Shown piece after piece: positions 1 through 58,304 of a DNA stretch of 64,000 bases; position 1 is the first letter of the stretch; every line of letters starts with the position of its first letter. The stretch covers positions 1-64,000 of the forward strand of contig NIVC01000059.1 in the NCBI GenBank assembly GCA_002269645.1, in the 5' to 3' direction. Under the pieces are notes generated by a model. It saw nothing but the letters and a program-made list of their open reading frames with translations. It did not search any database and was not told where the DNA came from. Position numbers and translations under genes: made by a program. This stretch comes from Macrostomum lignano (Eukaryota).

Positions 1-474
1 ATTGACACAGAGTTTGTTAGACAAGTTCACACACGCGTGTGCAGAGGACTGCTCCCGAATGCAGGATCGTATAGAATTAAGCACGCCAAGCCAGCAGGCG
101 CGAGTATGTATTACAGTGCCCCAGAAAATATTGAACGGCAGCTGGTAAAATTAACTAGAGACATAAAAGAGCCACAAATCTTGCGTGATGCAGTAGTGAC
201 AGGAGCATATTTCCTAGAAAAGTTTCTCACCATACACCCCTTTAGCGACGGCAATGGTAGAACTGCTAGGTTGTTATTATCAAAGTTGATCAACCGGATT
301 CTGCCAGAACCCGTATCATTTGCGTATGCAAATAGAGACACATATCTCAACTGTCTTTACGAAGCGCGCAGCAGCAACCGGGGGCTCCTAGCGGCGTATT
401 TACTTTTATCAATTGAGAGAACCGTTCTACAGTGGAGGGAATGGTTGGAAATCTGTTCAGACGGCAGCCTATAA
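1..474 (+). CDS. Fic/Doc-domain protein (AMPylase), 5' end outside the window
   Basis: Frame is open from base 1 (IDTEFVRQVHTRVCRGLLPNAGSYR). Canonical Fic motif HPFSDGNGRTAR; stop TAA at 472-474. Confidence 0.9.
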   Translation: MDTEFVRQVHTRVCRGLLPNAGSYRIKHAKPAGASMYYSAPENIERQLVKLTRDIKEPQILRDAVVTGAYFLEKFLTIHPFSDGNGRTARLLLSKLINRILPEPVSFAYANRDTYLNCLYEARSSNRGLLAAYLLLSIERTVLQWREWLEICSDGSL

Positions 475-479
475 ATAAA
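470..479 (+). promoter_or_regulatory. TATAAATAAA: TATA box plus polyA signal at the Fic stop
   Basis: Overlaps the Fic stop codon; 39 nt before ATG 509. Confidence 0.6.
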
Positions 480-508
480 TAAAATTGGTATTTCTCAACA
501 ATATCGAA

Positions 509-861
509 ATGTACTGGCAATCGGAAATAGTGTACACCCACGTTGACAACGCAGTGCTGGAAGTGGGATATTGGGACCCAAACAAGCCGCGTTTCCGCAT
601 CCACTGTCAAAACTGTAGCTGTCCAGGAGCCGTGTTTAGTCGAGCACAATGGCATCGAATGAAATTTCTGGCACTAGCTGCACAGATTACGATCTCGGAG
701 GCGGCGCATCTATCAAAGTTATCGACGGGAAGCGCCTGTACGTAAAAGGAGACTGCGAATTTCACCTGTCAGACAAAATACTTTGTGCAGTTGAAAAGAA
801 TAGAGTCGACAATTTCTTCCACTATTTCTTTCTCGACGAATCTGACGAGTCAGAGGAATGA
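509..861 (+). CDS. PC4-like ssDNA-binding/coactivator protein, split by a 1-nt frameshift near 662-667
   Basis: ATG 509 lies 39 nt after a TATA motif. PGAVFSRAQWHRMK resembles the PC4 KGISL..EQW..LK motif. The -1 frame continues YDLGGGASIKVIDGKRLYV and ends in an acidic tail. Confidence 0.5.
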
Positions 862-1358
862 GCTGGATTTCTCGAGACTACCCGCTTTTATCGAGCAAAG
901 AAAGGGCAGAGTACGAGACCCTGAAAAAGTCCACAGACTGGTTATGCATTTGTCACGGCAAACCAATTCCCGAACGATTAGTCACCTTTAATGTCGAGGT
1001 AGACGAAATTGGGCAAGGGCCTTACAGCACCCAAGAATATACAGATGCCCGAATTGACTACTACTTTAGAGACAAGATGCATTTCAAAGCCAATCTTCAA
1101 AGAATGGAGCAGATAATTGCCCCAATATTACAAGAGGATCATCGTGAGAAAATACGGTACCGGAATCACCAGCCGATTGCTCCCTCGTGGACGGAACACC
1201 AAAGGATTTGGCGACCTAAACACAGTAGACCAGTGCTAGCGAAGTTGACTATCAACCCTCACTGCAGCTGCATTACGACACGCCTCAAACCCTCGACCAG
1301 AAGATCGAAACAAAAGGTTTATTTTTTCCGGATTTCCAACACCGGAAAGTGTCGTTAA
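858..1358 (+). CDS. Hypothetical Polinton protein (166 aa)
   Basis: ATG overlaps the upstream stop (ATGA). Fills the gap between element genes; no family recognised. Confidence 0.6.
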   Translation: MSWISRDYPLLSSKERAEYETLKKSTDWLCICHGKPIPERLVTFNVEVDEIGQGPYSTQEYTDARIDYYFRDKMHFKANLQRMEQIIAPILQEDHREKIRYRNHQPIAPSWTEHQRIWRPKHSRPVLAKLTINPHCSCITTRLKPSTRRSKQKVYFFRISNTGKCR

Positions 1359-1408
1359 AGAAGGACTATAACAAAAACGCCCAGCCACCCCACCCTCCGC
1401 GCCAAGGG

Positions 1409-1416
1409 TATATAAG
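1409..1416 (+). promoter_or_regulatory. TATA box (TATATAAG) of the SSB-like gene
   Basis: GC-flanked; 51 nt before ATG 1460. Confidence 0.65.
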
Positions 1417-1459
1417 GAGGCGCTCAGGAGCGAGACCCACTCTCAGCAGCAGCAGCAAC

Positions 1460-2140
1460 ATGGATACCGTTCAAGACTACAATAGTGTTAGGATCGACCT
1501 ATTCTCTCTCAAGTCGAGAGGTCCAAGCTACAACGGAACCGAGACGTACGACATTGAGTACGACGAACAGGGCCCTCTCTATCTTGCCAATGCGACGCCC
1601 GTACTGATTGTCAAGGGTGTGAGAACCGACAATGAAGGCCGCGAATTCATCATTCTTTCCCAAAAGCACTTGGAGAGCTGCATACCAGAAGCGTTCAATT
1701 CCGTGTGTCACCAGCTCTCTATCCAAGGAATGGCGCTATTGGGGTACAACCCCACTTTTGGCTGCGACAGCGCTGCATTCGGATTGGCTCACGACTTTAA
1801 AATGTACGACAAGAGCGGCAAGTTGTGCACCGACTACAAGAACAAGACGGGCTACTATAGAGTACTGTTCGCCCTAGACACGGCGGTGATTCACGACTCG
1901 GTTCTAACCGCGGTGCCGAAAATTCAACAACTGCAATTCATAGAAGCTCCCAAGCAGGCGTTTGACCGCTGCTACTGGATTCCACCGTTAAAAATCAAGG
2001 TAGGACGCAAGCGCGGAGCTGGTGGAGCTGAGCGGAAACAAAAGCAACCGAAAAAACCGCTTGCAGAACGTCGTGTGCGTAAACAGGGTGTTTTGCGCAA
2101 GGTGGAACCACCTACCGAACTTGGACTGGGCGCGCGCTAG
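1460..2140 (+). CDS. Putative OB-fold ssDNA-binding protein with basic NLS-like tail
   Basis: Strong-context ATG (caacATGg) 51 nt after TATATAAG. C-terminal VPKIQQLQFIE strand resembles viral gp2.5-type SSBs; followed by GRKRGAGGAERKQKQPKK. The family call is by eye. Confidence 0.55.
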   Translation: MDTVQDYNSVRIDLFSLKSRGPSYNGTETYDIEYDEQGPLYLANATPVLIVKGVRTDNEGREFIILSQKHLESCIPEAFNSVCHQLSIQGMALLGYNPTFGCDSAAFGLAHDFKMYDKSGKLCTDYKNKTGYYRVLFALDTAVIHDSVLTAVPKIQQLQFIEAPKQAFDRCYWIPPLKIKVGRKRGAGGAERKQKQPKKPLAERRVRKQGVLRKVEPPTELGLGAR

Positions 2141-2540
2141 AACGTTTCATAGACCCCGGGCATTGTACAACCTGAGGATCGGAAAGTGTACAATAAACTT
2201 TTTCAAACGTTCATTATCTGCCATTGTTTTTGGTTGCCAATCAACCAACGATGTGCTGCGTCTTTTTGCTCAATGTAAACCAAACTCTGTTGTTATCACT
2301 ACCGGTACTTATCGTGCAGAAGTTAATGTTAAGCCAAACTTTTTCCGCCTTGCCAACTCGAGCTCGCGCTGGGTTGAGTGGGAGAGTGAGGTATTCAATG
2401 GGCTTGTAATAAAGTCCCCATTCCGCAAGGCCAAGTGCCTGCTGTGCGGAAAGAATGGTCGGTTAGTGTTCCTAGGAATACGAAACTATGACGAACTGTG
2501 TAAAATGTACGACCACGTGACTGCTATTCTGCAACTCTAA
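2022..2540 (+). CDS. Divergent TATA-binding protein (TBP)-like protein, no in-frame AUG
   Basis: Two TBP-like repeats: RLQNVVCVN (cf. QLQNIVST), EWESEVFNGLVIK (cf. SYEPELFPGLIYR), GRLVFLGIRNYDEL (cf. GKVVLTGAKVRAEI). The frame is open from 2004 with only CTG/GTG starts. Confidence 0.7.
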   Translation: MELSGNKSNRKNRLQNVVCVNRVFCARWNHLPNLDWARARTFHRPRALYNLRIGKCTINFFKRSLSAIVFGCQSTNDVLRLFAQCKPNSVVITTGTYRAEVNVKPNFFRLANSSSRWVEWESEVFNGLVIKSPFRKAKCLLCGKNGRLVFLGIRNYDELCKMYDHVTAILQL

Positions 2541-2552
2541 TTATGCTTTGCT

Positions 2553-2562
2553 TATAAATAAA
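2553..2562 (+). promoter_or_regulatory. TATAAATAAA: TATA box plus polyA signal
   Basis: 13 nt after the TBP-like stop; 53 nt before ATG 2606. Confidence 0.6.
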
Positions 2563-2605
2563 CAAAATATGCACATGTATGCACGCAATGCTTACCACCT
2601 TAATA

Positions 2606-2968
2606 ATGACAAACGGAATTTCTCGTCTTTGTTCTTGCCGTCGCGAGCTAGAGGAGCTCGGTGACGCGCGACCACATCGAAGGAGGGCCATTATTAGGGG
2701 AGCCGATAATGAGTTGATGCAGTGTCTGTGCGAGTTAAGCCACAATGTACTCAAGGGCAATATCGATCTATCCCCTAGACAGTTTGCAAGGTTGAAACGT
2801 TATAGAGAAGCCCTGCATGACATGGCCGACAAAAAACTGTCTATAAATAGGAAGAAGAATATGATACTATCGGACCCTCAAGTTGGAGGATTCCTACCAA
2901 TTCTCGCCAAGATTGCTGCACCGTTAATCACTGGACTGTTTGGTGGTCTGCTAGGACAACGACGTTGA
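2606..2968 (+). CDS. Polinton/adintovirus core protein with adenovirus pX-like C-terminus
   Basis: LCELSHNVLKGNIDLS...QVGGFLPILAKIAAPLITGLFGG. The GG/FLP plus hydrophobic tail resembles adenovirus pX. In-frame ATGs at 2579, 2588 and 2606. Confidence 0.75.
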   Translation: MTNGISRLCSCRRELEELGDARPHRRRAIIRGADNELMQCLCELSHNVLKGNIDLSPRQFARLKRYREALHDMADKKLSINRKKNMILSDPQVGGFLPILAKIAAPLITGLFGGLLGQRR

Positions 2969-2970
2969 AA

Positions 2971-3534
2971 ATGGACAAGTACGTTGTGGTCCCCGAGGAG
3001 GAATTCAATCAGCTTAGACAGGGTACTCCGCGAGAAATTGCCCCAAAATCGGAGTACGAAAAACTTGTAGAGTACAATGCAAAGCTACAGACCCAATTGG
3101 CTAAAGTAAAACCCCAAAAGACGACAAAGCAGCTATTTTCTGATAGGCAACAACGTATATGGAATATACTAACAGAAAAGCACCCCAGCCTAAATTACAA
3201 CCAATCGTGGGAAGTCGTTTTTGATGGTGAAACTTGGGGTGGCAGCAACGTTTTTGATCTTCTACAAGCCGTCACCACCAACACTAATAATCACCCGAAA
3301 TATTCAACCGCTTTCTGGGCTCTGCTAGACAAGGCCCGTATACCAATGTCTATGCTCGGTCGGAAACAGCTCCCTGTGGAGGAAAAGAAGGTTGACCATA
3401 TGGTTGGTACCGACGATTACCGCGATGAATATGAGCACACAATTGCGACAGACACCCGCGATTTAACGACCACGCGCAACAAAGGTGTAAATGCTATGCC
3501 CAAACTTGTCGATCGAAGGTACCGGGGTGGGTAA
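2971..3534 (+). CDS. Conserved Polinton protein of unknown function upstream of the integrase
   Basis: GGSNVFDLL...FWALLDKARIPMSMLG pattern, typical of the Maverick gene in this position. A possible +1-frame C-terminus (GVGKYHDYQLRPPEKKKKYVTLYK) runs to 3598. Confidence 0.7.
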   Translation: MDKYVVVPEEEFNQLRQGTPREIAPKSEYEKLVEYNAKLQTQLAKVKPQKTTKQLFSDRQQRIWNILTEKHPSLNYNQSWEVVFDGETWGGSNVFDLLQAVTTNTNNHPKYSTAFWALLDKARIPMSMLGRKQLPVEEKKVDHMVGTDDYRDEYEHTIATDTRDLTTTRNKGVNAMPKLVDRRYRGG

Positions 3535-3589
3535 ATATCACGATTACCAACTAAGACCACCCGAGAAAAAGAAAAAATACGTGACTCTT

Positions 3590-3597
3590 TATAAATA
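3590..3597 (+). promoter_or_regulatory. TATA box upstream of the integrase region
   Basis: TATAAATA 45 nt before ATG 3635. Confidence 0.55.
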
Positions 3598-3710
3598 GAA
3601 CCCTAGTCCAAACATAACCGCGCGCCCGGCGGTCATGGGCGCAGCAGCAGCCGCGTCAAAGCTTTGTGTAGACAACTCCCCAGCCGACATTACGTGCAAC
3701 TATTCATGCT

Positions 3711-4810
3711 GTGCATCCACACTTGTTGTCAATGAGGGCTCTAACCGCTCTTCGTCGAGTTTACGAACAAGGAGCCGCCGCTTTTTCAAATGCTGCCCGT
3801 GTCTATCAGGAGGCCAAACGTCTGGCGCCAAACCTGACAAGACGCCAAACCAGGGAATGGCTAGAAACCCAACCGAGTTACACCCGTCACCGGAGAGTCA
3901 ACAGGACATTTAAAACGGGAAAAGTAATGTCGGGAGGATTCATGGAAACTCTACAAGCCGATTTGATGGACATGTCGCGATACAAACGTTGGAATGACGG
4001 ACATAAATATATACTAGTTATTATTGATGTGCTTAGTAAGCAGGCTTTTTGTAGGGCAATTAAACTAAAGAGTGATACCCCCGCAGCGTTTGAGTCAATG
4101 TTGGCGAATGATTTCCCTGCCCGCCCCCTTTACCTTCACGTGGATCGGGGTACCGAGTTTTATAATCAGCGAATGCGCCGCATACTAAAAGACAATAATG
4201 TTAAAATGTACAGCACCAACTCTGTGTACAAGGCAAACATGGCCGAGAGGCTGATTAGAACTCTTCGAAAGCGTCTGGCTCGCTACTTTGAGCACAACAA
4301 CACGTGGCGTTGGGTTGACTACTTACCTAATTTGATAGGCAATTACAACAACACGACGCATTCTACTATTGAGATGAAACCGTCAAGTGTAGGGTTCCAC
4401 AATCAGAAGCGTGTGTGGGAAAAGCTCTACCCGGATCAGCAAAAAGACGACCCGTATATAAAAAGGGGGATTTTGTGAGAATTTCGAAATCTCGCAGGGC
4501 ATTCGACAAGGAGGCATACGACATGTATAGTGAGGAGGTGTACATTATATCCAAAGTTTGCCCTGGACCCCCACATTTTTATCGTATTTCTGATTTGTCT
4601 GGTGAAGTGATTGAGGGACGGTTTTACTACAATGAACTGTCCAAATCTACCCGACCCGAGCGTTTTGTAATCAATAAAGTTTTGCGTAGAAACGTGTTAA
4701 TAAATGGTGTTGCGCACCATTACGTTAGCTGGCGCGGTTATCCCGACACTTTTAATTCATTTGTACCTGTAAATGAAGTTATAAATATACGTCAACGTAA
4801 TAATAACTAA
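3711..4810 (+). CDS. Retroviral-like (rve, DDE) integrase with C-terminal chromodomain; 1-nt frameshift at A5 run 4441-4445
   Basis: QADL / HVDRGTEF / AERLIRTL catalytic triad. The second frame gives KKGDFVRISK and the chromodomain YVSWRGYPDTFNSF. Adding one A joins them as DQQKRRPVYKKGD. Confidence 0.93.
4780..4787 (+). promoter_or_regulatory. TATA box of the minor capsid gene (inside the integrase 3' end)
   Basis: TATAAATA 43 nt before ATG 4823. Confidence 0.55.
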
Positions 4811-4822
4811 TGCGTGGCTACC

Positions 4823-5953
4823 ATGCATCTCTTTCTGCCTAGCAATGCGTGCCCCGAGCACTATCCCGAAAATAATCCGGCTCATTATTTTATTAATTTA
4901 CCGGACACTCTCCACTTTCCGAATCATGAGGTTTGCCTCGAACGGATCTACTTTACCAAAGAATTTGAATCTTTCAAAAAATCTATACCGATCACCATTC
5001 GCGAACAGGAGGGCCTCTTGACGGCTTCGTCGTTTGCAAGCCTTTGTCTCGCAGCGGGTCTGAAAACCCCTGAAGAATGTATTTCCGGCTTTCTAAACGG
5101 TATCCGATACGTTGAAGGGGATAATAAGAAAATTGTCTTTTTAAGAACATCCCCAACCGCCTTTATGATTGTGAATACTTCAAAATCCACCGTCGGCATC
5201 AAATTCCCGGATGCCCTACCCAAGGTGTTTAAACTAGTCGCCGGCTTCGAGTCTAATGAGGATCTACCTACTGAACTCGTATTACACGCGGGGTGTGCAG
5301 CCTCCATCACCGCAGTTGTTGAGGAACCGACTGTACAGTCAATGGACCACGCTCCAATAATAAGACAAGTTACTAGCGCAGCGTCTGATCAAATCTATTT
5401 TATGCAGGGTGGATACTATAGTACACCTAAAAGATTGGTGGAGGAACTCAACGATTTAATTTGGAAACGGATCAAAGATCTCATAGCGGCTCCAGCACCT
5501 AGAAAGGACTTTTTCGGATACAGCGAAGTTACGAATAGGTGTTATTACATCGGCTCGGTGGATTACATGTTTGGGTTGGGGCGCTTGACCAGCGTGCTTG
5601 GTTTCCCAGAGCATGATTATACAACCCCATTTTTCGGTATATCGGATTTCTACGCAAACGCATCAATGGAATTAACCGGTGGAATACAAACAATGTACAT
5701 CTATTCGAGCATAGTCGATTCTGTTATTGTAGGAGACGTTAAAGTTCCTCTGTTGGGAGCTATACCGATGGATCCCAAAGTTCAGGGCGGTCGCGAGTAC
5801 TACGAGTTTGTCAATCCGGCATATCTACCGCTGGTTAAGCACCCATTCAAAACTATTGAAGTACAAATTAACGATGATATGGGCAGGGATATGACAAAAG
5901 TAATGAGGGGCAAGACCGTCTTGAGCGTTAACATCCGCGAAAAGAAGCTATAA
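4823..5953 (+). CDS. Minor capsid protein (penton, single jelly-roll)
   Basis: N-terminal LFLPSN..YPEN.P..Y...LP and C-terminal MYIYSSIVDSVIVGDVKVPLL...Y.P...F.TIEV.I.D..G motifs of Polinton minor capsid proteins; ATG in accATG context. Confidence 0.9.
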   Translation: MHLFLPSNACPEHYPENNPAHYFINLPDTLHFPNHEVCLERIYFTKEFESFKKSIPITIREQEGLLTASSFASLCLAAGLKTPEECISGFLNGIRYVEGDNKKIVFLRTSPTAFMIVNTSKSTVGIKFPDALPKVFKLVAGFESNEDLPTELVLHAGCAASITAVVEEPTVQSMDHAPIIRQVTSAASDQIYFMQGGYYSTPKRLVEELNDLIWKRIKDLIAAPAPRKDFFGYSEVTNRCYYIGSVDYMFGLGRLTSVLGFPEHDYTTPFFGISDFYANASMELTGGIQTMYIYSSIVDSVIVGDVKVPLLGAIPMDPKVQGGREYYEFVNPAYLPLVKHPFKTIEVQINDDMGRDMTKVMRGKTVLSVNIREKKL

Positions 5954-5958
5954 ATAAA
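5949..5958 (+). promoter_or_regulatory. TATAAATAAA at the minor capsid stop
   Basis: Overlaps TAA 5951-5953; 48 nt before ATG 5997. Confidence 0.6.
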
Positions 5959-5996
5959 CAGCACAGCCTCAGTAAACTATATCCTAGTGCTTAATC

Positions 5997-6341
5997 ATGC
6001 CTTCTATTCTGATTGGTGGAGCTTTGCCTGTTTTCGCGGGCGCCCAGAGGGGCAACGGTTTGTTTGGAAGCATTGCCCGCTTCGCGCTGCCAATTCTAAA
6101 GAGTTTTGGTAAAAACGTTCTCCGTCATGGTACTAGAGCCCTAGCAACTACTGTTAACGATAGCCTCGAGCAAGGAGGCAATTTGAAGGAGTCTGTCCTG
6201 CGCAATTCTGTTCAGGCTGCCAAGGACGCCTTTAAAGACACGGTTACCCAAAGGGGTAGCGGACGAAGAAGAAAAAAGGCTCCGAAGCGTCTCAATTCAG
6301 ACATTTTCAGCACTATAAATAAAAAGCCCCGCTTCAATTAG
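5997..6341 (+). CDS. Small basic Polinton virion protein with QxGxG motifs and amphipathic helix
   Basis: QRGNGLFGSIARFALPILKSFGK...QRGSGRRRKK; lies between the minor and major capsid genes. Confidence 0.8.
   Translation: MPSILIGGALPVFAGAQRGNGLFGSIARFALPILKSFGKNVLRHGTRALATTVNDSLEQGGNLKESVLRNSVQAAKDAFKDTVTQRGSGRRRKKAPKRLNSDIFSTINKKPRFN
6314..6323 (+). promoter_or_regulatory. TATAAATAAA upstream of the MCP
   Basis: 57 nt before ATG 6371. Confidence 0.6.
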
Positions 6342-6370
6342 ATTCGCCGAATCGAGTCTGTCTACTAAAC

Positions 6371-7654
6371 ATGTCCGAGTGTCTGTGTACAAAGTCCGAG
6401 TTTGAGCTCTTTGCCCCTCGAGCCCACCAGATTGCCGCTGTAGGTTCAACTACTGAAGAAATCCACCCGGTTGCCAGCGTCGAAAATGCGAGTGTGGTTG
6501 AGTTTAGAATTGTGGGCGGCGAGACGTTTGTCGATCTTAATGACATTGATCTCGAGATTAAAGGTTGTATTAAAAGAGCTAATGGAGCCGATTTGGCGGC
6601 GGATTCAAACGTGGCGCCAATCAATTACCTCTTGGAGACCATGTTCAAAAACGTGTCTCTTTCCATAAATGGTACACATATCGAGTCTAGCAACAACAAC
6701 CACGCCTACAAGGCGTACATTCGTACATGCTTGAGTTATGGGTCTGATTCAAAGTCTAACCAACTGCGGATGATGGGCTACGCTAAAGACGCTGGGGGTC
6801 AAATGGCTGCGGTTGGAAATCCTGGCTTTGTAACTCGCAAGGCGATGGCTGCCGGTTCTCGAACATTTCACCTGTATGGCCCTCTTAGTCTCGACTTTTT
6901 TGTCACCAACGATCGTATGCTGCTACCCTACACTGATATGGTGGTTACGCTCACTCTGCAAAATTCGGGATTCGTTGTAGAGAATCACGCCGAAGGGGTT
7001 GATGCAAAGTTGGTTCTTCAAAGTGCAAAATTACACGTTCGTCGGGTAAAGGCTAACCCCCAACTGGCCTTGGAGATTGAAGAACAGCTGGCGACTCAGA
7101 ATGCAGTCTACCCCATCGAGCGCCTCGTTGTACACAACACCTCTGTCGCTGTAGGAGTTCGCGACGTGTCAATCAATAATATTTTCCCGGAGCAGAAGCC
7201 TAAACTTGTCATTATGGGGATGGTAAATAGTGCCGCATATAACGGGGTGGCTACCCATAATCCGTTCAATTTCGAGCCATTTGGGGCTGACAGTGTGGCC
7301 CTGTACAAGGACGGTGTCAGTCTGTGCGGTCAACCATTCACTCCAAGGTTCGCTGCCCAAAACTATGCTCGCGAATACGCCATGCTGTTTAAGAGCCTAG
7401 GGAAAATGAATCGCGATTTGGACATTGACCTGTCATATTCGGATTATCGCGCCGGTTACTGCTTATTTGCGTGGAATCTAATGCCCGATATGGAACTGGG
7501 TGGACATAGCATGCCTCGCGAGAGAGGGAATCTGACCCTACAGATAAAGTTTTCTGCAGCCCTACCTGCCGGGATTAACGTTTTGGTGTTTGGTTACTTT
7601 GACAACGCGGTGCAAATCACTAGAGGCCGCCAGCCCATTCTGGACTACGTATGA
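6371..7654 (+). CDS. Major capsid protein (double jelly-roll)
   Basis: Intact 427-aa ORF with CTKSEFELF, VEFRI, FVDL, F.NV.L.ING, AYKAYI..LSY, NPFNFE and GNL.L.IKF motifs typical of the Polinton MCP. Confidence 0.93.
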   Translation: MSECLCTKSEFELFAPRAHQIAAVGSTTEEIHPVASVENASVVEFRIVGGETFVDLNDIDLEIKGCIKRANGADLAADSNVAPINYLLETMFKNVSLSINGTHIESSNNNHAYKAYIRTCLSYGSDSKSNQLRMMGYAKDAGGQMAAVGNPGFVTRKAMAAGSRTFHLYGPLSLDFFVTNDRMLLPYTDMVVTLTLQNSGFVVENHAEGVDAKLVLQSAKLHVRRVKANPQLALEIEEQLATQNAVYPIERLVVHNTSVAVGVRDVSINNIFPEQKPKLVIMGMVNSAAYNGVATHNPFNFEPFGADSVALYKDGVSLCGQPFTPRFAAQNYAREYAMLFKSLGKMNRDLDIDLSYSDYRAGYCLFAWNLMPDMELGGHSMPRERGNLTLQIKFSAALPAGINVLVFGYFDNAVQITRGRQPILDYV

Positions 7655-8087
7655 ACACGTTGGAAATTTTGGAGTGTTTAAAACTACCTGTGGAAGTGCA
7701 CGTTTGCCCTCTCGACAGAATTCCTGCACCTGTTTACCCTGCTGCATATGTAATTAATTTTGACACGGGTAATCTGCCAGGCACCCACTGGGGACTGATT
7801 TGCCTACACGATGATAAGAGTGTGACATTTTTTGACCCTCTGTGTATTGAACCCGTGCCGGAATTGCTCTCGGCTTGGATCTCGAAGCATGTACATTCAC
7901 CTGTTGCTATGAATCGCCACCCTGTTCAACACCCTCTAAGTGTAGCGTGTGGGCCGCATGTGATTTTTGTGGCCGAAAAGCACTTTTTAGAGGGTTGTCG
8001 ATTGAAAAGATTTTAAGGGAATGTTACTCTACCAATCTGCTTGAAAATGATTTGATGGTTCGAAAACATGTTCTACAAATAAAATAG
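7651..8087 (+). CDS. Adenain-like cysteine maturation protease; 1-nt frameshift at T5 run 7984-7988
   Basis: GTHW (His), FFDP (Asp), Q..SVACG (Gln/Cys). The -1 frame supplies the C-terminus FRGLSIEKIL...NLLENDLMV. The ATG overlaps the MCP stop (ATGA). Confidence 0.9.
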
Positions 8088-8121
8088 TTTTTAATATTTG
8101 GAGTGTCAACTCGCCCTGAAA

Positions 8122-8751
8122 ATGTACCAAACAATTGATCCTGACGCTCTAAAGTTTGCTCCAAATACTTCGGCGATTTTTGCTGGTGTTAACCAGAGCG
8201 GAAAAACAACTCTTGTTAAAGAATTGCTGCGAAACGAGTTTTTTCAGGACCCTAAGCCTGTTCGCGTTGATTGGTTTGGGCACTATCCAGACCCGGAACT
8301 GTTTGAATTACCGTACCCTGTCAATTTTCGCTCGTCTACATTTAACCCTGAAACCTATGTTCCCGCTCCGAATATTCTACTCGTTGTCGATGATCAAATG
8401 CAAGCCATGGAAAAAAACGCTGCTTTTACCGCATTTTTCACTCGCAAAGTCAGCCATGTGGGATTCCGGCTTTGGTACCTTGTACAAAACCTGTTTGCCA
8501 AGGGCAAGGAGCACCGCACTCAATCCCTTAACGCAAACTACCTTGTATTGTTCCGCAATGTACGGGACGTTAGTACAGTCGCCCATATTGCAAAGCAGCT
8601 TGTCCCCGCTAACCCAAAAAGTTTTGTTCAAATGTACGAAGACGCCACTAGGGAGCCCTACTCCTACTTGATTGTTAATTGCTTGCAGAACGCATCTGTT
8701 CGCTACTATGCTAATGTGTTGGGGCGCTACCCCGTAGTTTATGCTAAATAA
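8122..8751 (+). CDS. DNA-packaging ATPase (FtsK-HerA/A32-like)
   Basis: Walker A GVNQSGKT, Walker B LLVVDD, then QNLF...RTQSLNANYLVLFRNVRD; AATAAA at 8747-8752. Confidence 0.93.
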   Translation: MYQTIDPDALKFAPNTSAIFAGVNQSGKTTLVKELLRNEFFQDPKPVRVDWFGHYPDPELFELPYPVNFRSSTFNPETYVPAPNILLVVDDQMQAMEKNAAFTAFFTRKVSHVGFRLWYLVQNLFAKGKEHRTQSLNANYLVLFRNVRDVSTVAHIAKQLVPANPKSFVQMYEDATREPYSYLIVNCLQNASVRYYANVLGRYPVVYAK

Positions 8752-8839
8752 AACACTGTTGGAGAGCTTTGCTCTGTTTGCCGGATGGCCTGAACCTGAA
8801 ACAACTAAAATACGTGTTTTTTCTTTTCAAGTCCTCTAC

Positions 8840-9503
8840 TGCCCTGGGGGGAGCTCTCTATCACTCACCCCCGGTCTGTCCCGCGCCTCCAGACTGGGCC
8901 GCTCTCTCCGCGGGGGGTGTGATTCATACTCCCTCTCTGTCCACGCCGCGTGCTGCGACATGCCAGGGCAGCGCAGGGTGCCTCCACGCACTCTCTGTCC
9001 CAGCACCCCGTGTCTCTTTGTACCCCACCTCATACTGCTACAGGGGTCGCCTGTTATCTGTCCCCTGCTACAGGGGGATGGCGGCTCTCCACGCACTACC
9101 CCTCCTGCTACAGGGGCTGCTCTCTGTCCCCAGCTACAGGGCTGCTCTCTGTCCCCCGCATGGGGGGCCGGTTGCTCAGTGTACAGGGCTGCGTCAGCAT
9201 CGGGGGTTTCCTTCCTACACTAACCGCGTGCACACGACATTGGTGGGAGGGGCGGGAATCCCCCCGCCGGATGTACACCCCGAGGGAGGCCCATGCGCTG
9301 AAGGTACACTCGCTGGACGCCCAGCCGGCCGGATGTACACTCGCGGGAGGCCCACCCCGCTGGAGGTACACTCGCTGGACACCCACCCCGCTGGAGGTAC
9401 ACCCCGGGGGAGGTGGTACACCCCGAGGGAGCACCTTGCCGCGGTGCTAGAGGCCGACATCAGCCCGACGGACCTTCGCAAAATCGAGCCATTCGGAATC
9501 CCT
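8840..9503. repeat. GC-rich terminal region (candidate TIR) with CTCTGTCC sub-repeats and a 31-bp-periodic GTACAC array
   Basis: GTACAC at 9273, 9304, 9335, 9366, 9397 and 9416; stem GGCGGG/CCCGCC at 9251-9268. The partner TIR is not in the window. Confidence 0.55.
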
Positions 9504-10417
9504 TAGTAGTAGCACTTACAGCAGATAAGCGCTGCTTTTGAAGATTAGCGTAGCCCCAGCAAAAGCATAAGTATACAAAATAAAATGTTAAAAATTTGCA
9601 TGAATCCCCATAGGAAACAATGATTATTGTCACAAAGATAAATTCGCTACTTCAATGTAGACTCGAACTGCCGACCTTCTACTAAAAGACTTATACTATT
9701 TTAGAAGTTTAGTAACTTCACACTTTGAAGTTAACCCCTCCCCCCAGAAATCGGCAGTTATCCCCACAACAACCTGAAATTAGCTATCACTTCTAATCCC
9801 GCAAACAGACTGCAGTCATACTCTTAGCAGCCTGCAGGTACGAGTATCCACCTTGCTGTCTACAACTTTCATTAGCATCGGCAAACTACAATAATTCACT
9901 CAGCAGTCCGCAGTTACTCGTATCCCCTCAACAACTTGCTCTGCTATACACTCATAAGTCTGGAGGAATACCTCAGCAGTTTTTTTTCAATTTTTCCCAT
10001 TGCAGTCTGCATGAATGAGTCATCTCAGCAATGATTCTTTCAGTAATCTGATAATTTGCTCAGTATTTAGTACAGCTCACTAATCAATTTGGCGATCCAT
10101 ATCGGAAGTCTTTTGCGCAGCTCAGCATTTAGCAGTACCTTCAGCTGTTTAGCTATTTAGCAGCATCGTCTGCAATTCGGGAGCAGTAATACACAAGCAG
10201 TTTTTTTACAAATCAAATTTTAAAATGCACTGGCTGAAATCAAATCAAATTCAAATTGACAAAATCAATTTGTTTAGCAGCTTGTGCTGAATAGCAAAAA
10301 TATTGTGCTGAATAGCAAATATAATTCATTGAGTGTGGCTTACTAATTAATAAAAAATGATTCAATTAGTTGAGGCGCTAGGTATAAATGAACTAATTTA
10401 TTTAATTTTAATTATCG

Positions 10418-13489: not shown

Positions 13490-15230
13490 TTTTTACATGA
13501 CACCCTTCATGTCTGACATGACGCTTCTTTTATTCTACCATGATGCTTCTTAATTTTTTAAATGACACTTTCATTAGTTTTTAAATGAGGCTTCTATGAT
13601 TTTTTCACGACGCTTCTATGATTTTTACATGACACTTCTATGATTTTTTACATGACGCTTCTATGATTTTTTACATGACGCTTCTATGATTGTTTACATG
13701 ACGCTTCTATGATTTTTAAATGACGCTTCTATGATTTTTTACATGACCCTTCTATGATTGTTTACATGACGCTTCTATGATTGTTTACATGACGCTTCTA
13801 TGATTGTTTACATGACGCTTCTATGATTTTAAATGACGCTTCTATGATTTTTTACATGACGCTTCTATGATTGTTTACATGACGCTTCTATAATTTTTAA
13901 ATGACGCTTCTACAATTTTTTACATGACACTTGAATGATTGTTAACATGACGCTTCTATGATTTTTTGCATGACGCTTCTATGATTTTTATATGACGCTT
14001 CTACGATTTTTTACATGGCGCTTCTATGATTGTTTACATGACGCTTCTACGATTGTTTACATGACGCTTCTATGATTGTTTACATGACGCTTTTATGATT
14101 GTTTACATGACGCTTCTACAATTTTTTTACATGACGCTTCTATGATTGTTTACATGACGCTTCTATGATTGTTTACATGACGCTTCTATGATTGTTTACA
14201 TGACGCTTTTATGATTTTTTACATGACGCTTCTATGATTTTTTTACATGACGCTTCTATGATTTTTTACATGACGCTTCTATGATTGTTTACATGACGCT
14301 TTTATGATTGTTTACATGACGCTTCTACAATTTTTTTACATGACGCTTCTATGATTGTTTACATGACGCTTCTATGATTGTTTACATGACGCTTCTATGA
14401 TTGTTTACATGACGCTTTTATGATTTTTTACATGACGCTTCTATGATTTTTTTACATGACGCTTCTATGATTTTTTACATGACGCTTCTATGATTGTTTA
14501 CATGACGCTTTTATGATTGTTTACATGACGCTTCTACAATTTTTTTACATGACGCTTCTATGATTGTTTACATGACGCTTCTATGATTGTTTACATGACG
14601 CTTCTATGATTGTTTACATGACGCTTCTATGATTGTTTACATGACGCTTCTATGATTGTTTACATGACGCTTCTATGATTGTTTACATGACGCTTCTATG
14701 ATTTTTTACATGACACTTCTATGATTGTTTACATGACGCTTCTATGATTGTTTACATGACGCTTTTATGATTTTTTACATGACGCTTCTATGATTTTTTT
14801 ACATGACGCTTCTATGATTTTTTACATGACGCTTCTATAATTGTTTACATGACGCTTCTATGATTGTTTACATGACGCTTCTATGATTGTTTACATGACG
14901 CTTCTATGATTGTTTACATGACGCTTCTATGATTGTTTACATGACGCTTTTATGATTGTTTACATGACGCTTCTATGATTTTTTTACATGACGCTTTTAT
15001 GATTTTTTACATGACGCTTCTATGATTTTCACATGACGCTTCTATGATTTTTTAAATGACGCTTCAATGATTTTTATATGACGCTTCTACGATTCTTTAC
15101 ATGACGCTTCTATGATTGTTTACATGACGCTTCTATGATTTTTTACATGACACTTCTATGATTGTTTACATGACGCTTCTATGATTGTTTACATGACGCT
15201 TCTATGATTTTTACATGACGCTTCTTTTTA
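13490..15230. repeat. ~23-bp satellite (ACATGACGCTTCTATGATTGTTT)n in unit B copy 1
   Basis: Direct reading; T-run length varies. Confidence 0.97.
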
Positions 15231-18200
15231 AAAAGTCTTAGTTTTCCTGACGTTGAAAAGCTTTAATTAAAAAAATTATACTCTATGAAAATTCGAACCA
15301 TCGTCTTTGCATTTAGCAGTTCAGTTTGTTCACCTCTAGGCTAGCTCTCATCGTTTTGATAACATCAAATTTTGCACTTATATAATTCAACACTTTAAAA
15401 TCCAAGCATAGAGTAAATCACACGAAGCAGTTATGACATAATCAATATCCAGTCAGTCAGTATCAGTTAACAATATGGTTACGCAATTTAAATCAAGTCT
15501 GGTGCTACGCTTCCACACTGCATTTTCAATTCAAGTCGGAGTTACAATTCAGTTATGATGCAATCTATTTCAGAATCAGAATTCAACCAGTCAGTTTGTT
15601 CTCTAGCATTCTTACAATGCATTTCAAGTCGAAAAGTTTGCTTGACCTTTGCAAAAAAGCATGTTTTTCGAATATTAAATGCCTTTAGCATCGAGCAATT
15701 TCTTAGCCACGATGCATGTACAGTCACGGGAAAATTTCTGATCGAACAGTGCAAGTTCGAACAAAATCGGTCCAGCCATTTTTTCTCTAATCGATCACAT
15801 AGACACAGACAGACCATTTTTAGTATATAGGATAGAAGAAGACTAGAGCGTTATGGACATTCATTCATTCAAGCATACAAACCTTAGAGATTTAGTATAT
15901 TTAGAAGTCTCTAGAGCGTTATGGACATTCATTCATTCAAGCATACAAACCTTAGAGATTTAGTATATTTAGATTACTAGCTAATTAGAGCTGGCTGCCA
16001 GCATCCAGAATAATTTTTTATTGCCCCCCTTTAAGTGGAGCGGAGTGAGTTTTCTTATCAGTTGGCTCTGGCGCAATCAATTAAAATTGGCAGTGAAGTT
16101 TCTGGCTGATAAAATTTGCATTGAAAAAGGCCATTTAAAACAGTTTTTCGAATATTTAATCCCTTTAGCATTGAATCAGATACAAGAAATTTTAACTGTC
16201 TTCTTTCCAGACAATTTTGAATCTTTTGGCGAAAACGCGATCAAAATCGGTGAAGAATTGCAGTCTCTAGAGCGTTATGGACATTCATTCATTCAAGCAT
16301 ACAAACCTTAGAGATTTAGTATATTTAGAAGATAGAAGATGGACAAGCATTCAAGCATACAAACCTTAGAGATTTAGTATATTTGGATTATGGACAAGCA
16401 TTCAAGCATACAAACCTTAGAGATTTAGTATATTTAGACTAGCTAATTAGAGCTGGCTGCCAGCAGCCAGAATAATTTTTTTATTGCCCCCCTTTATGTG
16501 GAGCGGAGTGAGTTTTCTTATCAGTTGGCTCTGGCGCAATCAATTAAAATTGACTGTGAAGTTTCTGGCTGATAAAATTTGCATTGAAAAAGGCCATTTA
16601 AAACAGTTTTTCGAATATTTAATCCCTTTAGCATTGAAGCAGATACAGGAAATTTTAACTGTCTTCTTTCCAGACAATTTTGAATCTTTTGGCGAAAACA
16701 CGATCAAAATCGGTGAAGAATTGCAATCTCTAGAGCGTTATGGACAAGCAAGCATTCAAGCATACAAAGCTTAGAGATTTAGTATTTTTAACTGTCTTCT
16801 TTCCAGACAATTTTGCATCTTTTGGCGAAAACGCGATCAAAATCGGTGAAGAATTGCTCTCTCTAGAGCGTTATGGACATTCAAACATACAAACCTTAGA
16901 GATTTAGTATATTTAGACTAGCTAATTAGAGCTGGCTGCCAGCAGCCAGAATAATTTTTTTATTGCCCCCCTTTATGTGGAGCGGAGTGAGTTTTCTTAT
17001 CAGTTGGCTCTGGCGCAATCAATTAAAATTGACTGTGAAGTTTCTCGCTGATAAAATTTGCATTGAAAAAGGCCATTTAAAACAGTTTTTCGAATATTTA
17101 ATCCCTTTAGCATTGAAGCAGACACAAGAAATTTTAACCATACAATCCCAGGCTGATTACGAATCTTTTGGCGAAAACGCGATCAAAATCGGTGAAGAAT
17201 TGCAATCTCTAGAGCGTTATGGACAAGCAAGCATTCAAACATACAAACCTTAGAGATTTAGTATATTTAGATAGATTGGAGAGCGCAAAAATCAGCCATT
17301 TATGCTTTGACATTGCGGTCAAATACACAGCAGTGATAGGCTGCTCAGTGTGCACAGGTTTGGTGCCGGCAGAGCCATTCAGCCAAGGTCAGAAGAATGT
17401 ACACACGCAGCCACTGAGCATTATTATTATTTCAATACTTTTAAAATGCACTGGCTGATTTCGCTCTCCCTCCAGAGTGCCTGCGCAATGCTTGGCACAC
17501 TGCCTCCACCTAAAAAGCTCAGAGTCATTTTATAGCGAGAATATGCAGTACACAGTTGTGGCGCAATCAAAATTAGATTTGGAATTCAGCCAGTCAAGAA
17601 TTCAACCTTGCTTGGCCTTCTATTAAAAGCATTAGAAAAACTCGTTTTTCGAATATTTAATACCTTTAGCATTAAAGCCAATTAAAGAAATTTTAACTGT
17701 CTTCTTTCCAGATAATTACAATCTTTTGGCAAAAACGCGATTAAAATTGGTCAATCGGTTCGATCTCTAGAGCGCTACACGAATACTAACACAAATTCTC
17801 TTCGAGTGAACGTCACACGAAGCAGCTATGACATAATTAAATACGCAGGCAGTCAGTATCAGTCTAAATTAAAGTTTGCTATATGGTTACGCAATTTCTG
17901 CCTTTCAACTTAGCACAGTGTTTTCAAATTGTTGTGATGCAATCTTTATCAGAATCAGAATTCAGCCAGCCAGTTTTTTCTCTAGCATTCGTATAGTGCA
18001 CTTCAAGTCGAAAGAGCTGCTTGACCTTTGCAAAAAACATGTTTTTCGAATATTTAATCCCTTTAGCATTGAAGCAGATACAAGAAATTTTAACCATACA
18101 ATCCTGGGCTGATTACAAATCTTTTGGCGAAGACGCGATCAAAATCGGTGAAGAATTGCAGTCTCTAGAGCGTTATGGACATTCAAGCATACAAACCTTA

Positions 18201-18451
18201 GAGATTTAGTATATTTAGAAGAAGACTAGCAATCTACGCCCCCCGTTGGGGAGCCAAAGAAATGCAATACACGTTTTTTTTAATAAGCTACATATATATC
18301 CTTGAAATCTTAAAAAATCTCCTGTCAAACCTTGTAAGCCTTGACATGTCAATAATTCCCCCCCACAAGCTTTAACATATCAACTTCCCCCCTTGACATC
18401 TCAGCAATGCCCCCAATAAGCCTTGGAAATCTAAAAATATCTGTCAACCTT

Positions 18452-18512
18452 CTAACTCTAACCCTAGCCGAACCCTAACCCTAACCCTAACCCTAACCCT
18501 AACCTAACCCTA
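18452..18512. repeat. Interstitial telomere-type tract (TAACCC)n in unit B copy 2
   Basis: Duplicate of 12620-12680 at offset 5832. Confidence 0.8.
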
Positions 18513-19324
18513 AAGCATTGAAATTTCAGTAATTCTCTCTAAGAGTCATAATAGCACTACTACAGCATTATAGCGATTCCCTGCAAGCCTCGACATCGTA
18601 GGGATTCCCAAATGAATATCTTAACTTCGACATGAAGCTTCTTTTATTTTTTACATTACGTTTTTTTATCAGCGATCCCTCCCCTGAGGAGGCATCAAAT
18701 AATGTAATAAAAAGTTTTCAATAAACTACATGTAGCTTCTGACTTTAGCCTTGAAATCTCATTTATACCCCCGTGAGCCTTGACATCTCAGCTATTCCCC
18801 CCGTAAGCCTTAACATGTCAGCGATGGCCCCATAAACCTTGAAATCTAAAAAATCCCCTGTTATTCTGTTAACCTTGAAACCTGATAAAATATAACCCTC
18901 AACCCACACCTGACCTAAACCTAACTTTAACCCAACCTAAAGCCTTGAAATCTCCGCAATTCTTCTCCCCTAAGCCTTGACATTTTAGTGATTCCTTCTT
19001 TAAGAATCAAGCACTATAACGATTTCCACCAAGCTTTGACATCGTAGCAATTCCCAAATTAATCTTTTAACTTGAACATGACTTTTCTTTTATGTATACG
19101 TAGTGCTACTTTTATTTTTTACATGACTCTTCTTCTATCAGCGCCCCCGTGGCGAGCCAACAAAGAATGCAATAAAAAATGAGTAAAGTACATGAACTTT
19201 GAAGTAGCTTCTGACTTTTACTTTGACATCTCAGAAACCCCCCCCGTAATCTCAGTTATTCTCTGAGAGCCTTTATGTCTCAGTTTTTTCTCCCCAGCAC
19301 AGCATTATAGCTGCATTTAATTTT

Positions 19325-21585
19325 TACATGACACCCTTCATGTCTGACATGACGCTTCTTTTATTCTACCATGATGCTTCTTAATTTTTTAAATGACACT
19401 TTCATTAGTTTTTAAATGAGGCTTCTATGATTTTTTCACGACGCTTCTATGATTTTTAAATGACGCTTCTATGATTTTTTACATGACGCTTCTATGATTT
19501 TTTACATGACGCTTCTATGATTGTTTACATGACGCTTCTATGATTTTTAAATGACGCTTCTATGATTTTTTACATGACCCTTCTATGATTGTTTACATGA
19601 CGCTTCTATGATTGTTTACATGACGCTTCTATGATTGTTTACATGACGCTTCTATGATTTTAAATGACGCTTCTATGATTTTTTACATGACGCTTCTATG
19701 ATTGTTTACATGACGCTTCTATAATTTTTAAATGACGCTTCTACAATTTTTTACATGACACTTGAATGATTGTTAACATGACGCTTCTATGATTTTTTGC
19801 ATGACGCTTCTATGATTTTTATATGACGCTTCTACGATTTTTTACATGGCGCTTCTATGATTGTTTACATGACGCTTCTACGATTGTTTACATGACGCTT
19901 CTATGATTGTTTACATGACGCTTTTATGATTGTTTACATGACGCTTCTACAATTTTTTACATGACGCTTCTATGATTGTTTACATGACGCTTCTATGATT
20001 GTTTACATGACGCTTCTATGATTGTTTACATGACGCTTTTATGATTTTTTACATGACGCTTCTATGATTTTTTTACATGACGCTTCTATGATTTTTTACA
20101 TGACGCTTCTATGATTGTTTACATGACGCTTTTATGATTGTTTACATGACGCTTCTACAATTTTTTACATGACGCTTCTATGATTGTTTACATGACGCTT
20201 CTATGATTGTTTACATGACGCTTCTATGATTGTTTACATGACGCTTCTATGATTTTTTACATGACACTTCTATGATTGTTTACATGACGCTTCTATGATT
20301 GTTTACATGACGCTTTTATGATTTTTTACATGACGCTTCTATGATTTTTTTACATGACGCTTCTATGATTTTTTACATGACGCTTCTATAATTGTTTACA
20401 TGACGCTTCTATGATTGTTTACATGACGCTTCTATGATTGTTTACATGACGCTTCTATGATTGTTTACATGACGCTTCTATGATTGTTTACATGACGCTT
20501 TTATGATTGTTTACATGACGCTTCTATGATTTTTTTACATGACGCTTTTATGATTTTTTACATGACGCTTCTATGATTTTCACATGACGCTTCTATGATT
20601 TTTTAAATGACGCTTCAATGATTTTTATATGACGCTTCTACGATTCTTTACATGACGCTTCTATGATTGTTTACATGACGCTTCTATGATTTTTTACATG
20701 ACACTTCTATGATTGTTTACATGACGCTTCTATGATTGTTTACATGACGCTTCTACAATTTTTTTACATGACGCTTCTATGATTGTTTACATGACGCTTC
20801 TATGATTGTTTACATGACGCTTCTATGATTGTTTACATGACGCTTTTATGATTTTTTACATGACGCTTCTATGATTTTTTTACATGACGCTTCTATGATT
20901 TTTTACATGACGCTTCTATGATTGTTTACATGACGCTTTTATGATTGTTTACATGACGCTTCTACAATTTTTTACATGACGCTTCTATGATTGTTTACAT
21001 GACGCTTCTATGATTGTTTACATGACGCTTCTATGATTGTTTACATGACGCTTCTATGATTTTTTACATGACACTTCTATGATTGTTTACATGACGCTTC
21101 TATGATTGTTTACATGACGCTTCTATGATTGTTTATATGACGCTTCTATGATTTTTTACATGACGCTTCTATGATTTTTTACATGACGCTTCTATAATTG
21201 TTTACATGACGCTTCTATGATTGTTTACATGACGCTTCTATGATTGTTTACATGACGCTTCTATGATTGTTTACATGACGCTTCTATGATTGTTTACATG
21301 ACGCTTTTATGATTGTTTACATGACGCTTCTATGATTTTTTTACATGACGCTTTTATGATTTTTTACATGACGCTTCTATGATTTTCACATGACGCTTCT
21401 ATGATTTTTTAAATGACGCTTCAATGATTTTTATATGACGCTTCTACGATTCTTTACATGACGCTTCTATGATTGTTTACATGACGCTTCTATGATTTTT
21501 TACATGACACTTCTATGATTGTTTACATGACGCTTCTATGATTGTTTACATGACGCTTCTATGATTTTTACATGACGCTTCTTTT
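19325..21585. repeat. ~23-bp satellite in unit B copy 2 (longer array)
   Basis: Same monomer; the flanking offset changes from 5832 to 6357, i.e. 525 bp longer. Confidence 0.97.
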
Positions 21586-24500: not shown

Positions 24501-24934
24501 TTTGCATTGAAAAAGGCCATTTAAAACAGTTTTTCGAATATTTAATCCCTTTAGCATTGAATCAGATACAAGAAATTTTAACTGTCTTCTTTCCAGACAA
24601 TTTTGAATCTTTTGGCGAAAACGCGATCAAAATCGGTGAAGAATTGCAGTCTCTAGAGCGTTATGGACATTCATTCATTCAAGCATACAAACCTTAGAGA
24701 TTTAGTATATTTAGAAGATAGAAGATGGACAAGCATTCAAGCATACAAACCTTAGAGATTTAGTATATTTGGATTATGGACAAGCATTCAAGCATACAAA
24801 CCTTAGAGATTTAGTATATTTGGATTATGGACAAGCATTCAAGCATACAAACCTTAGAGATTTAGTAGTATATTTGGAAGGTTAAAGTTAGCGTCCCAAT
24901 GCAAAAACAAGCGGTCTGTACGTACATGTACGTG

Positions 24935-26383: not shown

Positions 26384-27314
26384 CTATTGGTCGTTCTCCA
26401 GATCCTTAAACCAGACGTCGCCCTGCAGCTGCGTCGTCTCGGATGGCAAGTTAAACATGGGCTCCTGGGGTTGCTGATTGACGTACATCGGGAGGCGACC
26501 CAGCCTTTGGCGCACCATATTAAGCATAGTGCAGAGGTGATGGGTCTTGTAGTTTTCTCTGAACACTTCGCACAAATTTTGTATGTAAATACTTCCTGTC
26601 GTCGGGCATCTCAGAGCGTAGTCACCCCTAGTCACCGAGTAGGCAAATAGAAAGTCGAGCTTCTCGGAGAGTTGTCTGTTTAACCGCCTGTTGGAGGCAT
26701 CGAAATTGCTTGGACTGCTGTTGTTGCTTCCGACAGACGACACCGGCTGGTCGACGTTTGACTCGGCTGTCACGCTGGCGCCGACGCCGAGAGGCCGACA
26801 GGCCTGCAGGAAGAACAGCTTCGGCTTCTGCTGCAGAGAGTCACAGCAGTAGAATGGCGCGAATATGTCATCTAGGGCGACCCACTCGCCATCGCAGCCA
26901 AGAACGCGGTCGCATTCACCGTGCGACATGATGAAAGCAACGAAACAGTCAAATTTCGTGTGACGATCGCGGGCAGCTAGCGATCGCATCAGGGCGAGAA
27001 TGTCGCACGCGTCCAGATTCTGGTGGACTTGAACCCGAAACTTGAGTGTGTCCTTAAACAGTCGCTCCAGACTGGCTACATCTTTCCTTGAGCCGGGTCG
27101 AGGTTCACATTCGCCTGAGAACTGCTCATTGTTGATGATGACGCACATTCCACGTGGATTGGAGCGCATGGAGTACTGGTAGCCGCGTATAGGCGGCACA
27201 ACACTGGAGTTCAAATTCGAACTGTCCATCTCCGCTGAAGGTACTTCAGCTAGCTGAGCACTTCCAGCGTCAAGCTGCATCTTGACTCCTGCTGTCTCAT
27301 TGCTGGTGGCGCTG
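26384..27314 (-). CDS. Ankyrin-repeat caspase, exon 4: caspase (C14) catalytic domain
   Basis: PRGMCVIINN, RPGSRKD, FIMSHG (His), KPKLFFLQACRP (Cys), DFLFAYS, GSIYIQNLC. Acceptor ttttttacag at 27315, phase 2. Confidence 0.9.
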
Positions 27315-27480
27315 CTGTAAAAAATTAGACAGAGATACAGATAATGTGGAAGATTTTCAAAATTCAGCCAAGCAAAATTTATTTGTTATAAAACTGAGAA
27401 AATATGACGTCACGATTGCATAAAAATCTAAAAATGAATGAGCAACGAGGTACTCTCCACGTTTGTAAAAGCTATCTAAC

Positions 27481-30775: not shown

Positions 30776-30910
30776 CCGAAAGAATTAACAATTCTCCACA
30801 GCAATCAAGCTTCTGCACTTTAGGTGCAGTGCAGATATGTCTCATATATACGGCCTTATCTTAAAAATAAACTTGTACCATGCAATCAAATCAACGCTAA
30901 CAAAACTCAC

Positions 30911-48098: not shown

Positions 48099-58304
<10,206 letters not shown>

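Follow-up and report, generated by a model that had tools for sequence, protein, structure and literature searches.

A polymerase-less Polinton of Macrostomum lignano, likely the capsid-and-integrase half of a two-part virus, with TATA-like motifs at its gene junctions

The 64,000-nucleotide stretch of Macrostomum lignano DNA analysed here (contig NIVC01000059.1 of assembly GCA_002269645.1; hereafter the window) opens with a row of viral-type genes of a Polinton-like element, and TATA-like motifs recur at the junctions between them. What kind of element is this, and what reads its motifs? The sequence-only reading had answered that the element is a candidate self-contained transcription system, which encodes a TBP-like and a PC4-like protein and could use one decamer both as the polyadenylation signal of one gene and as the TATA box of the next. 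It was found that the observation behind this answer was largely right and the interpretation half right. We consider it probable that the element is a polymerase-less Polinton, likely the capsid-and-integrase half of a two-part virus, that the motifs between its genes probably serve as TATA boxes, and that its TBP is made, as predicted from the sequence, by splicing.

Bases 1-9510 of the window are the right 9.5 kb of the element, the left side being lost at the contig start. At least 31 copies of this family, called A, are present at 93% identity or more in the M. lignano genome (the best 40 of 75 candidates were scored). The gene order in other copies is repeat, Fic, ORF117, ORF171, ORF226, TBP frame, pVII-like, ORF208, a 92-aa ORF, integrase, predicted penton, pX-like, predicted hexon, protease, ATPase and repeat; the window copy is frameshifted in ORF117, ORF171, ORF208, the integrase and the protease. 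Fifteen of the 16 end-to-end copies measure 10.44-10.69 kb and the remaining one 13.9 kb. The terminal inverted repeats are about 670 bp long, and a 6-bp target-site duplication (TSD) was seen in seven of eight A end pairs. A sister family, B, has a TBP 78% identical and a hexon (major capsid protein) 88-90% identical to those of A; the major capsid identity stands at 88% although that at third positions is 53%. The B copies read have neither Fic nor ORF117, and in them a TATATAAG promoter block is duplicated (L054, 5700-6160). The structural names (pVII-like, pX-like, penton, hexon) are those we take to be appropriate; the assignments rest on synteny and on 25-42% identity to genes of PolB-bearing Polintons, and those of the protease and packaging ATPase on weak Pfam matches plus the same range of identity to syntenic genes. 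No relatives of A were found in viral or metagenome contigs, and only four SSB-like and four TBP-like proteins, all without gene context, were found outside the M. lignano genome. A PHROGs search gave no informative match.

PolB is absent from A, as judged from the copies read and from the length of 15 of the 16 end-to-end copies. The 13.9-kb copy has a 3.4-kb insert without a PolB match, the B copies read also lack PolB, and none was found beside 14 stretches around degenerate relatives. The gene sits on separate elements. Five elements of family D1 were read (four distinct sites); they are 8.5-9.1 kb long and carry PolB (PF03175, E=1e-17) and a PC4-like ORF. Three D2 elements were read, of 9.5 kb, 10.4 kb and 18 kb, the last with a fragmentary PolB. 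D1 gave no tblastn match at 1e-4 to integrase, capsid, protease or ATPase, and D2 likewise showed no match to integrase or virion genes. The gene sets of A and D are complementary and their termini match, as in segmented viruses. A 6-bp TSD was seen in 27 of 30 end pairs, including all five of D1 and all three of D2 despite the lack of an integrase there. The D1 PolB is interrupted by GTAAG...AG introns (L094, 2400-7600), and D2 additionally carries a dUTPase (L077). A search with a D1 exon, in which all 134 candidates were scored, yielded 56 D1-type and 41 more diverged loci, counts that may include duplicate haplotypes (L095/L097 and L102/L103 share flanks). Between these 97 loci and 70 A or B loci only three pairs lie on the same contig, the nearest 47.7 kb apart. 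An adjacency at C261 was considered as a composite element and ruled out, each part having its own terminus.

The ends divide these elements into two matched groups. ACTACTA termini are found in A, D1 and the gene-poor elements E1, and ACTACGTA termini in B, D2 and the gene-poor E2. Over the first 26 nucleotides the best identity within groups is 22 (A-D1), 23 (A-E1), 25 (B-D2) and 24 (B-E2), against 15 (A-B), 13 (A-D2) and 11 (B-D1) across groups. Polinton termini as a rule begin with AG; such starts were seen in other lineages of this genome, the one-piece lineages C, F, G and H and a TBP-less lineage ending in AGTAGTA. Some ends are mosaic: in E1 elements, pieces of 85 nt and 31 nt from the A repeat (94-97%) are joined to ends of the D1 type. 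Bases 8-26 of ACTAC-ended elements (e.g. window 9485-9510) are hypervariable, with nine variants in 17 A ends; a single copy can have unlike variants at its two ends, and variants recur across partner families. The gene-poor elements (L098, L099 and L101 with ACTACTA ends, L102-L109 with ACTACGTA ends) are 3.4-9.9 kb long with 6-bp TSDs, and their inverted repeats are very long or whole-length. They could be satellites, snap-back defectives or further segments.

The absence of PolB from A, together with separate PolB-only elements bearing matching ends, suggests that A and D are likely halves of one segmented virus, the other segment of which likely carries a protein-primed DNA polymerase and PC4. 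The main rival is one-way parasitism, in which A would move as a transposon by means of its integrase, and the elements with PolB alone or without genes would be selfish linear replicons making use of the integrase and the ends of A. The D1-type loci (56) outnumber the A copies (at least 31 at 93% or more), as parasites of A might, and the existence of E1 and E2 implies that the ends alone suffice for insertion. On the other hand the whole virion module, an SSB-like gene and long repeats persist in A across two diverged families, the sharing of terminal variants runs in both directions, and the A-B and D1-D2 pairs have diverged in parallel (capsid 88%, PolB 61-71%). We hold parasitism to be unlikely. 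It is very improbable that A arose by deletion and relies on complete AGTAGT-type Polintons for its replication in trans, with its match to D incidental. Complete TBP-bearing Polintons are indeed abundant in the same genome, but their ends differ from the first base, their proteins are only about 27-36% identical to those of A, and it is with D1 and E1 that A shares 22-23 of 26 terminal bases.

If A and D are halves of one virus, D would supply PolB and PC4, and A would supply SSB, integrase, capsid and TBP. The partner polymerase, with PC4 and the SSB of A, could copy every linear DNA ending in ACTACTA, ends being swapped by template switching. The integrase of A would insert both segments, and its capsid and ATPase would package them. 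Host RNA polymerase II could transcribe about nine units starting some 30 nt behind the motifs, with motif-less genes coupled through stop-start overlaps. Promoter 1409 would give the SSB with its basic tail from the unspliced message and the TBP from the spliced one, and the viral TBP would likely assist host polymerase II at late promoters. A wider picture, which we hold only tentatively and put a little short of even, is that of two multipartite integrating double-stranded DNA Polinton viruses with virion/integrase, spliced PolB and gene-poor satellite segments, exchanged terminal cassettes, one capsid type and a TBP-driven late programme, the TBP being made only by splicing onto the SSB or via a host leader AUG.

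The motifs themselves were present at all eight sites that had been listed (470, 1409, 2553, 3590, 4780, 5949, 6314 and 8074). Four are exact TATAAATAAA decamers (470, 2553, 5949, 6314), a word occurring four times in 64 kb against a mean of 0.35 and a maximum of three in 100 shuffles; the others are TATATAAG (1409), TATAAATAGA (3590), TATAAATATA (4780) and TACAAATAAA (8074). In bases 1-8760 TATAAATA occurs seven times on the + strand and never on the - strand (1000 shuffles: mean 0.16, maximum 2). Two motifs overlap stop codons, as had been claimed, at 470 (the Fic TAA ends at 474) and at 5949 (stop ending at 5953). The distance of 39-57 nt to the next ATG is not literal for two sites: at 2553 the first ATG lies at +16 and the one shared with B at +53, and at 4780 the first lies at +30 and that of the gene at +43. 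There are additional sites: position 2842 has a further TATAAATA, from which ORF208 is 129 nt away, and the integrase contains TATA-like words at 4455/4457. Five of ten TATAWAWR words stand 30-70 nt ahead of a listed gene start (binomial p=7e-5), and the TATATAAG word also stands ahead of PC4 on the polymerase element. Genes without a near motif (ORF171, protease) start on the preceding stop (ATGA).

Comparison with B separates the two proposed functions of the decamer. B keeps all nine junction motifs (the eight and 2842) amid diverged flanks, only 409 of 793 third codon positions (52%) agreeing between the families. It is in its last two letters that the motif varies: B retains AATAAA at 5949, 6314 and 8074 and has lost it at 470 and 2553, and the TACAAA at 8074 keeps the protease frame free of a stop. 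Since AATAAA is kept at just three of five sites and the TATA part throughout, it is the TATA function that is conserved, and use as a polyadenylation signal would be partial. The motifs are thus conserved like promoters and probably serve host RNA polymerase II as TATA boxes; some may double as polyadenylation signals.

The element does encode a TBP-like protein, as the sequence-only reading had held. The frame at 2004-2540 is a two-repeat TBP by Pfam (E=9.5e-5, with a score of 22.6 bits, the cut-off being 22.9), by PDB sequence matches (18 of 19 are TBP) and by fold. Its model has the two-repeat saddle (fold E=1.7e-7, TM about 0.7); the alignment behind it included TBPs and so biased it, and the sequence matches are independent. 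Residues E109, E111 and F113, which we take to form the TFIIB stirrup, are invariant. The TBP-like look of the ORF171 tail is a frameshift product of the window copy.

No in-frame ATG precedes the last residues of the TBP frame, and splicing is the predicted route to the protein. Donor and acceptor contexts are identical in A and B, and their spacing is 67 and 197 nt respectively, with different frame offsets; only splicing would yield the same in-frame product from both. The donor is in phase 0 in four of five copies scored, the fifth being frameshifted upstream. Conservation of ORF226 ends at the invariant IKV of the donor in six of six sequences, and four outside homologues (46-56%) show this. 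A programmed frameshift was ruled out, the offset differing between A and B, and so was an internal ATG, the residue being Met in B and Leu in A. Cis-splicing to an SSB-TBP fusion is the route we somewhat favour. A start from the AUG of the host spliced leader appears rather unlikely. A flatworm leader AUG is able to start an ORF, according to the portions considered of PMC12582326 and PMC9851317, and the predicted acceptor at 2066/2067 matches the flatworm trans-splice acceptor [T/C]TNCAG given in part of PMC8629364. The leader motif ending in ATG has 71 copies in the M. lignano genome (control 0), and GTAAG follows it in two of five loci read; the copies at L114-L116 are not followed by GT and are probably retrocopies of trans-spliced mRNAs. 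An AATAAA at 2408 inside the TBP exon is kept in B and could end an unspliced SSB message, so limiting TBP.

The conserved 180-aa domain of ORF226 is probably a single-stranded DNA-binding protein; its low-confidence model (pLDDT 42) matches an NCLDV family that includes P31K (best viral E=4e-4) and has no PDB match. P31K is described as an SSB in the relevant part of PMC8734342. A PC4-like protein, the other half of the proposed basal-factor module, was not confirmed in A: ORF117 has no Pfam match, and in an HH comparison with an alignment of PC4-like proteins from other elements its probability was 4.9% over 19 columns. None was found in B. PC4 is clearer on the polymerase elements (D2 E=1e-5, D1 E=0.034), and its place beside PolB points to replication. 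Among the ORFs scanned there was no RNA polymerase, TFIIB or DNA polymerase, and a self-contained transcription system is not borne out.

Who, then, reads the motifs? TBP is common among M. lignano Polintons: lineages A/B, C, F, G, H and I have it, and seven stretches read from the L012-type lineage showed none. Lineage-specific TATA-like words stand about 35-75 nt ahead of many genes in the TBP-bearing lineages. Words lie within 80 nt upstream of 8/8 genes in A and 6/6 in B (TATAAATA types, the genes being picked because a motif precedes them), 6/7 in two copies of C (mostly TTAAGAA), 5/5 in F and 4/6 in I (one at 21 nt), and at 30-70 nt ahead of none of 12 genes in the TBP-less lineage. Lineage genes and word patterns were picked by hand after viewing, from few lineages, and the comparison lies within the M. 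lignano genome, the outside SSB-like and TBP-like proteins having no gene context; the expected co-occurrence of motif and TBP is thus suggestive. Examples among one-piece Polintons are L083, L067 (C), L119 (F), L124 (G) and L127 (I), with TBP plus the words TTAAGAA, TATAAGAA and TATAAGY. The TBP ORF of C and F, which starts at an ATG of its own, overlaps an ORF upstream of it. Whether viral rather than host TBP reads TATAAATA is, in our judgement, evenly balanced. TATAAATA is a canonical TATA box, which host TBP might well read, and the DNA-binding face of the viral protein has diverged while its stirrup is conserved. It is possible, at somewhat under even chances, that host TBP alone reads the boxes, the viral TBP being a decoy or modulator (e.g. 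of TFIIB) and the AATAAA overlap a matter of genome compaction; yet the words that other TBP-bearing lineages have at this distance are non-canonical, and the TBP-less lineage has none. The opposite view, a dedicated viral TBP-PC4 module with each decamer serving as TATA box and polyadenylation signal, is doubtful. It draws on the confirmed TBP, its invariant stirrup and the lineage-specific words, including the non-canonical one of C, but PC4 is weak in A and located with PolB, polymerase subunits are absent, and AATAAA is incompletely kept.

Besides the excess of D1-type loci, several observations weigh against the two-part reading and its promoters. The predicted capsid proteins have no Pfam, library or PDB match. 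Five of the nine motifs lie within coding sequence, and two have lost AATAAA in B. Only two of seven genes in lineage G have an upstream word, and the co-occurrence leans on a single TBP-less lineage. Repeat 1 of the viral TBP is very diverged and aligns poorly to host TBP; by eye, two of what we take to be the four DNA-wedging Phe and one of the two Asn are missing. No spliced joint was seen at the predicted intron in four presumed-RNA contig sets, all unspliced there; their near-even coverage of the element, repeats included, means that DNA may be included, so that they show neither expression nor absence of splicing. The contigs of one run begin 38-92 nt behind five motifs; coming from a single study, this was not counted as evidence. 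Conservation of the acceptor is partly explained because TTGCAG-AAC also encodes the TBP-typical L-Q-N, and a long fused SSB-TBP homologue was not found, in a weak test.

Table 1. Features of the element in the window.
Feature	Position	Strand	Remarks
Fic-domain gene	1..474	+	truncated by contig start; 259 aa in other copies; Pfam Fic E=2.8e-14
TATAAATAAA on Fic stop	470..479	+	
ORF117, weak PC4-like motif	509..861	+	frameshifted here; 117 aa in other copies
ORF171, no assigned function	858..1371	+	start overlaps ORF117 stop (ATGA); frameshifted near 3' end here
TATATAAG	1409..1416	+	51 nt ahead of SSB-like gene
ORF226	1460..2140	+	180-aa conserved domain, probably ssDNA-binding, then basic tail
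Predicted 67-nt intron, GTAGG...TTGCAG	2000..2066	+	197 nt in B
TBP-fold coding exon	2067..2540	+	without own ATG
TATAAATAAA between TBP and pVII-like gene	2553..2562	+	AATAAA lost in B
Small basic core-protein-like ORF, pVII-like (presumed name)	2606..2968	+	TATAAATA at 2842 inside
ORF208, no assigned function	2971..3598	+	common to other Polintons; frameshifted here
TATAAATAGA	3590	+	overlaps ORF208 stop in other copies
92-aa ORF, N-terminus MGAAA	3635..3913	+	first ATG behind motif 3590; overlaps integrase start; kept in B
Retroviral-type integrase with chromodomain	3732..4810	+	Pfam rve E=7.5e-10; frameshifted here; 359 aa elsewhere
TATAAATATA in integrase 3' end	4780..4789	+	
Predicted minor capsid protein	4823..5953	+	by position and presumed motifs; no library match
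TATAAATAAA on minor capsid stop	5949..5958	+	
Small basic ORF, pX-like (presumed name)	5997..6341	+	TATAAATAAA at 6314 inside
Predicted major capsid protein	6371..7654	+	27-34% identity to syntenic ORF of PolB-bearing Polintons
Adenain-type cysteine protease	7651..8087	+	Pfam C48 E=0.06; frameshifted here; last codons hold TACAAATAAA at 8074
Packaging ATPase	8122..8751	+	weak Pfam match; AATAAA on stop (8747)
Right terminal inverted repeat	8845..9510		inner edge approximate; terminus ACTACTA read inward

The N-terminus of the 92-aa ORF is presumably of myristoylation type, and the ORF may encode an entry protein. Elsewhere in the window, single-exon host-type genes at 26384-31776 and 37163-37945 encode a caspase domain, three ankyrin ORFs and a rhodopsin-family GPCR, and tandem arrays with periods of 14-479 nt occupy 13516-24718 and 50913-60748.

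Lacking PolB, A is not a canonical member of the Polintons/Mavericks and works like half of one. Unlike the one-piece Polintons of the same genome (AGTAGT), its termini read ACTAC. Bidnaviruses are parvovirus-like single-stranded DNA viruses without an integrase, whereas both parts here are integrated elements of double-stranded DNA, and the predicted capsid is of the double-jelly-roll type. Polintons that are non-autonomous, and Polinton-like viruses that lack an integrase, are known, with missing core functions supplied in trans; the loss here goes both ways and recurs in two matched pairs (A+D1, B+D2), and no complete parent was found. Like A, Polintons and adintoviruses have an rve integrase, an adenain-type protease, an FtsK-type ATPase, a predicted hexon and penton, long inverted repeats and a 6-bp TSD; in the parts of PMC8502044 considered, by far most adenain-bearing contigs have PolB, and TBP appears among the genes only in legends of genome-map figures. 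The difference is that PolB here lies on a separate element with matching ends and spliceosomal introns. The same parts of that source describe bidnaviruses as having two segments, matching termini being a criterion for segments, and a pPolB related to that of Polintons, features that A and D, as likely halves of one virus, share. For integrase-less Polinton-like viruses, integration functions are possibly supplied in trans (PMC11296320, in part). The sections considered of PMC11296320, PMC6431247 and bioRxiv 10.1101/697771 describe no such Polinton split, and those of PMC12582326, PMC8629364 and PMC9851317 describe the spliced-leader AUG for host genes, its viral use being only predicted here. 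No segmented Polinton or Polinton promoter study was found in the open full-text literature, a scope outside which Repbase, subscription papers and supplements lie.

A split Polinton, if true, would add integrating DNA viruses with double-jelly-roll capsids to those with segmented genomes, and PolB-based surveys would miss such elements. With so many nearly identical copies, expression, the exchange of ends and the content of particles can be put to the test. How Polinton virion genes are switched on can be tested directly in lineages that have TATA words and TBPs of their own, and a viral gene started by the host spliced leader, if true, would be a new host dependence. The split would also provide a living model for the swapping of replication and virion modules and for the origin of the bipartite bidnaviruses.

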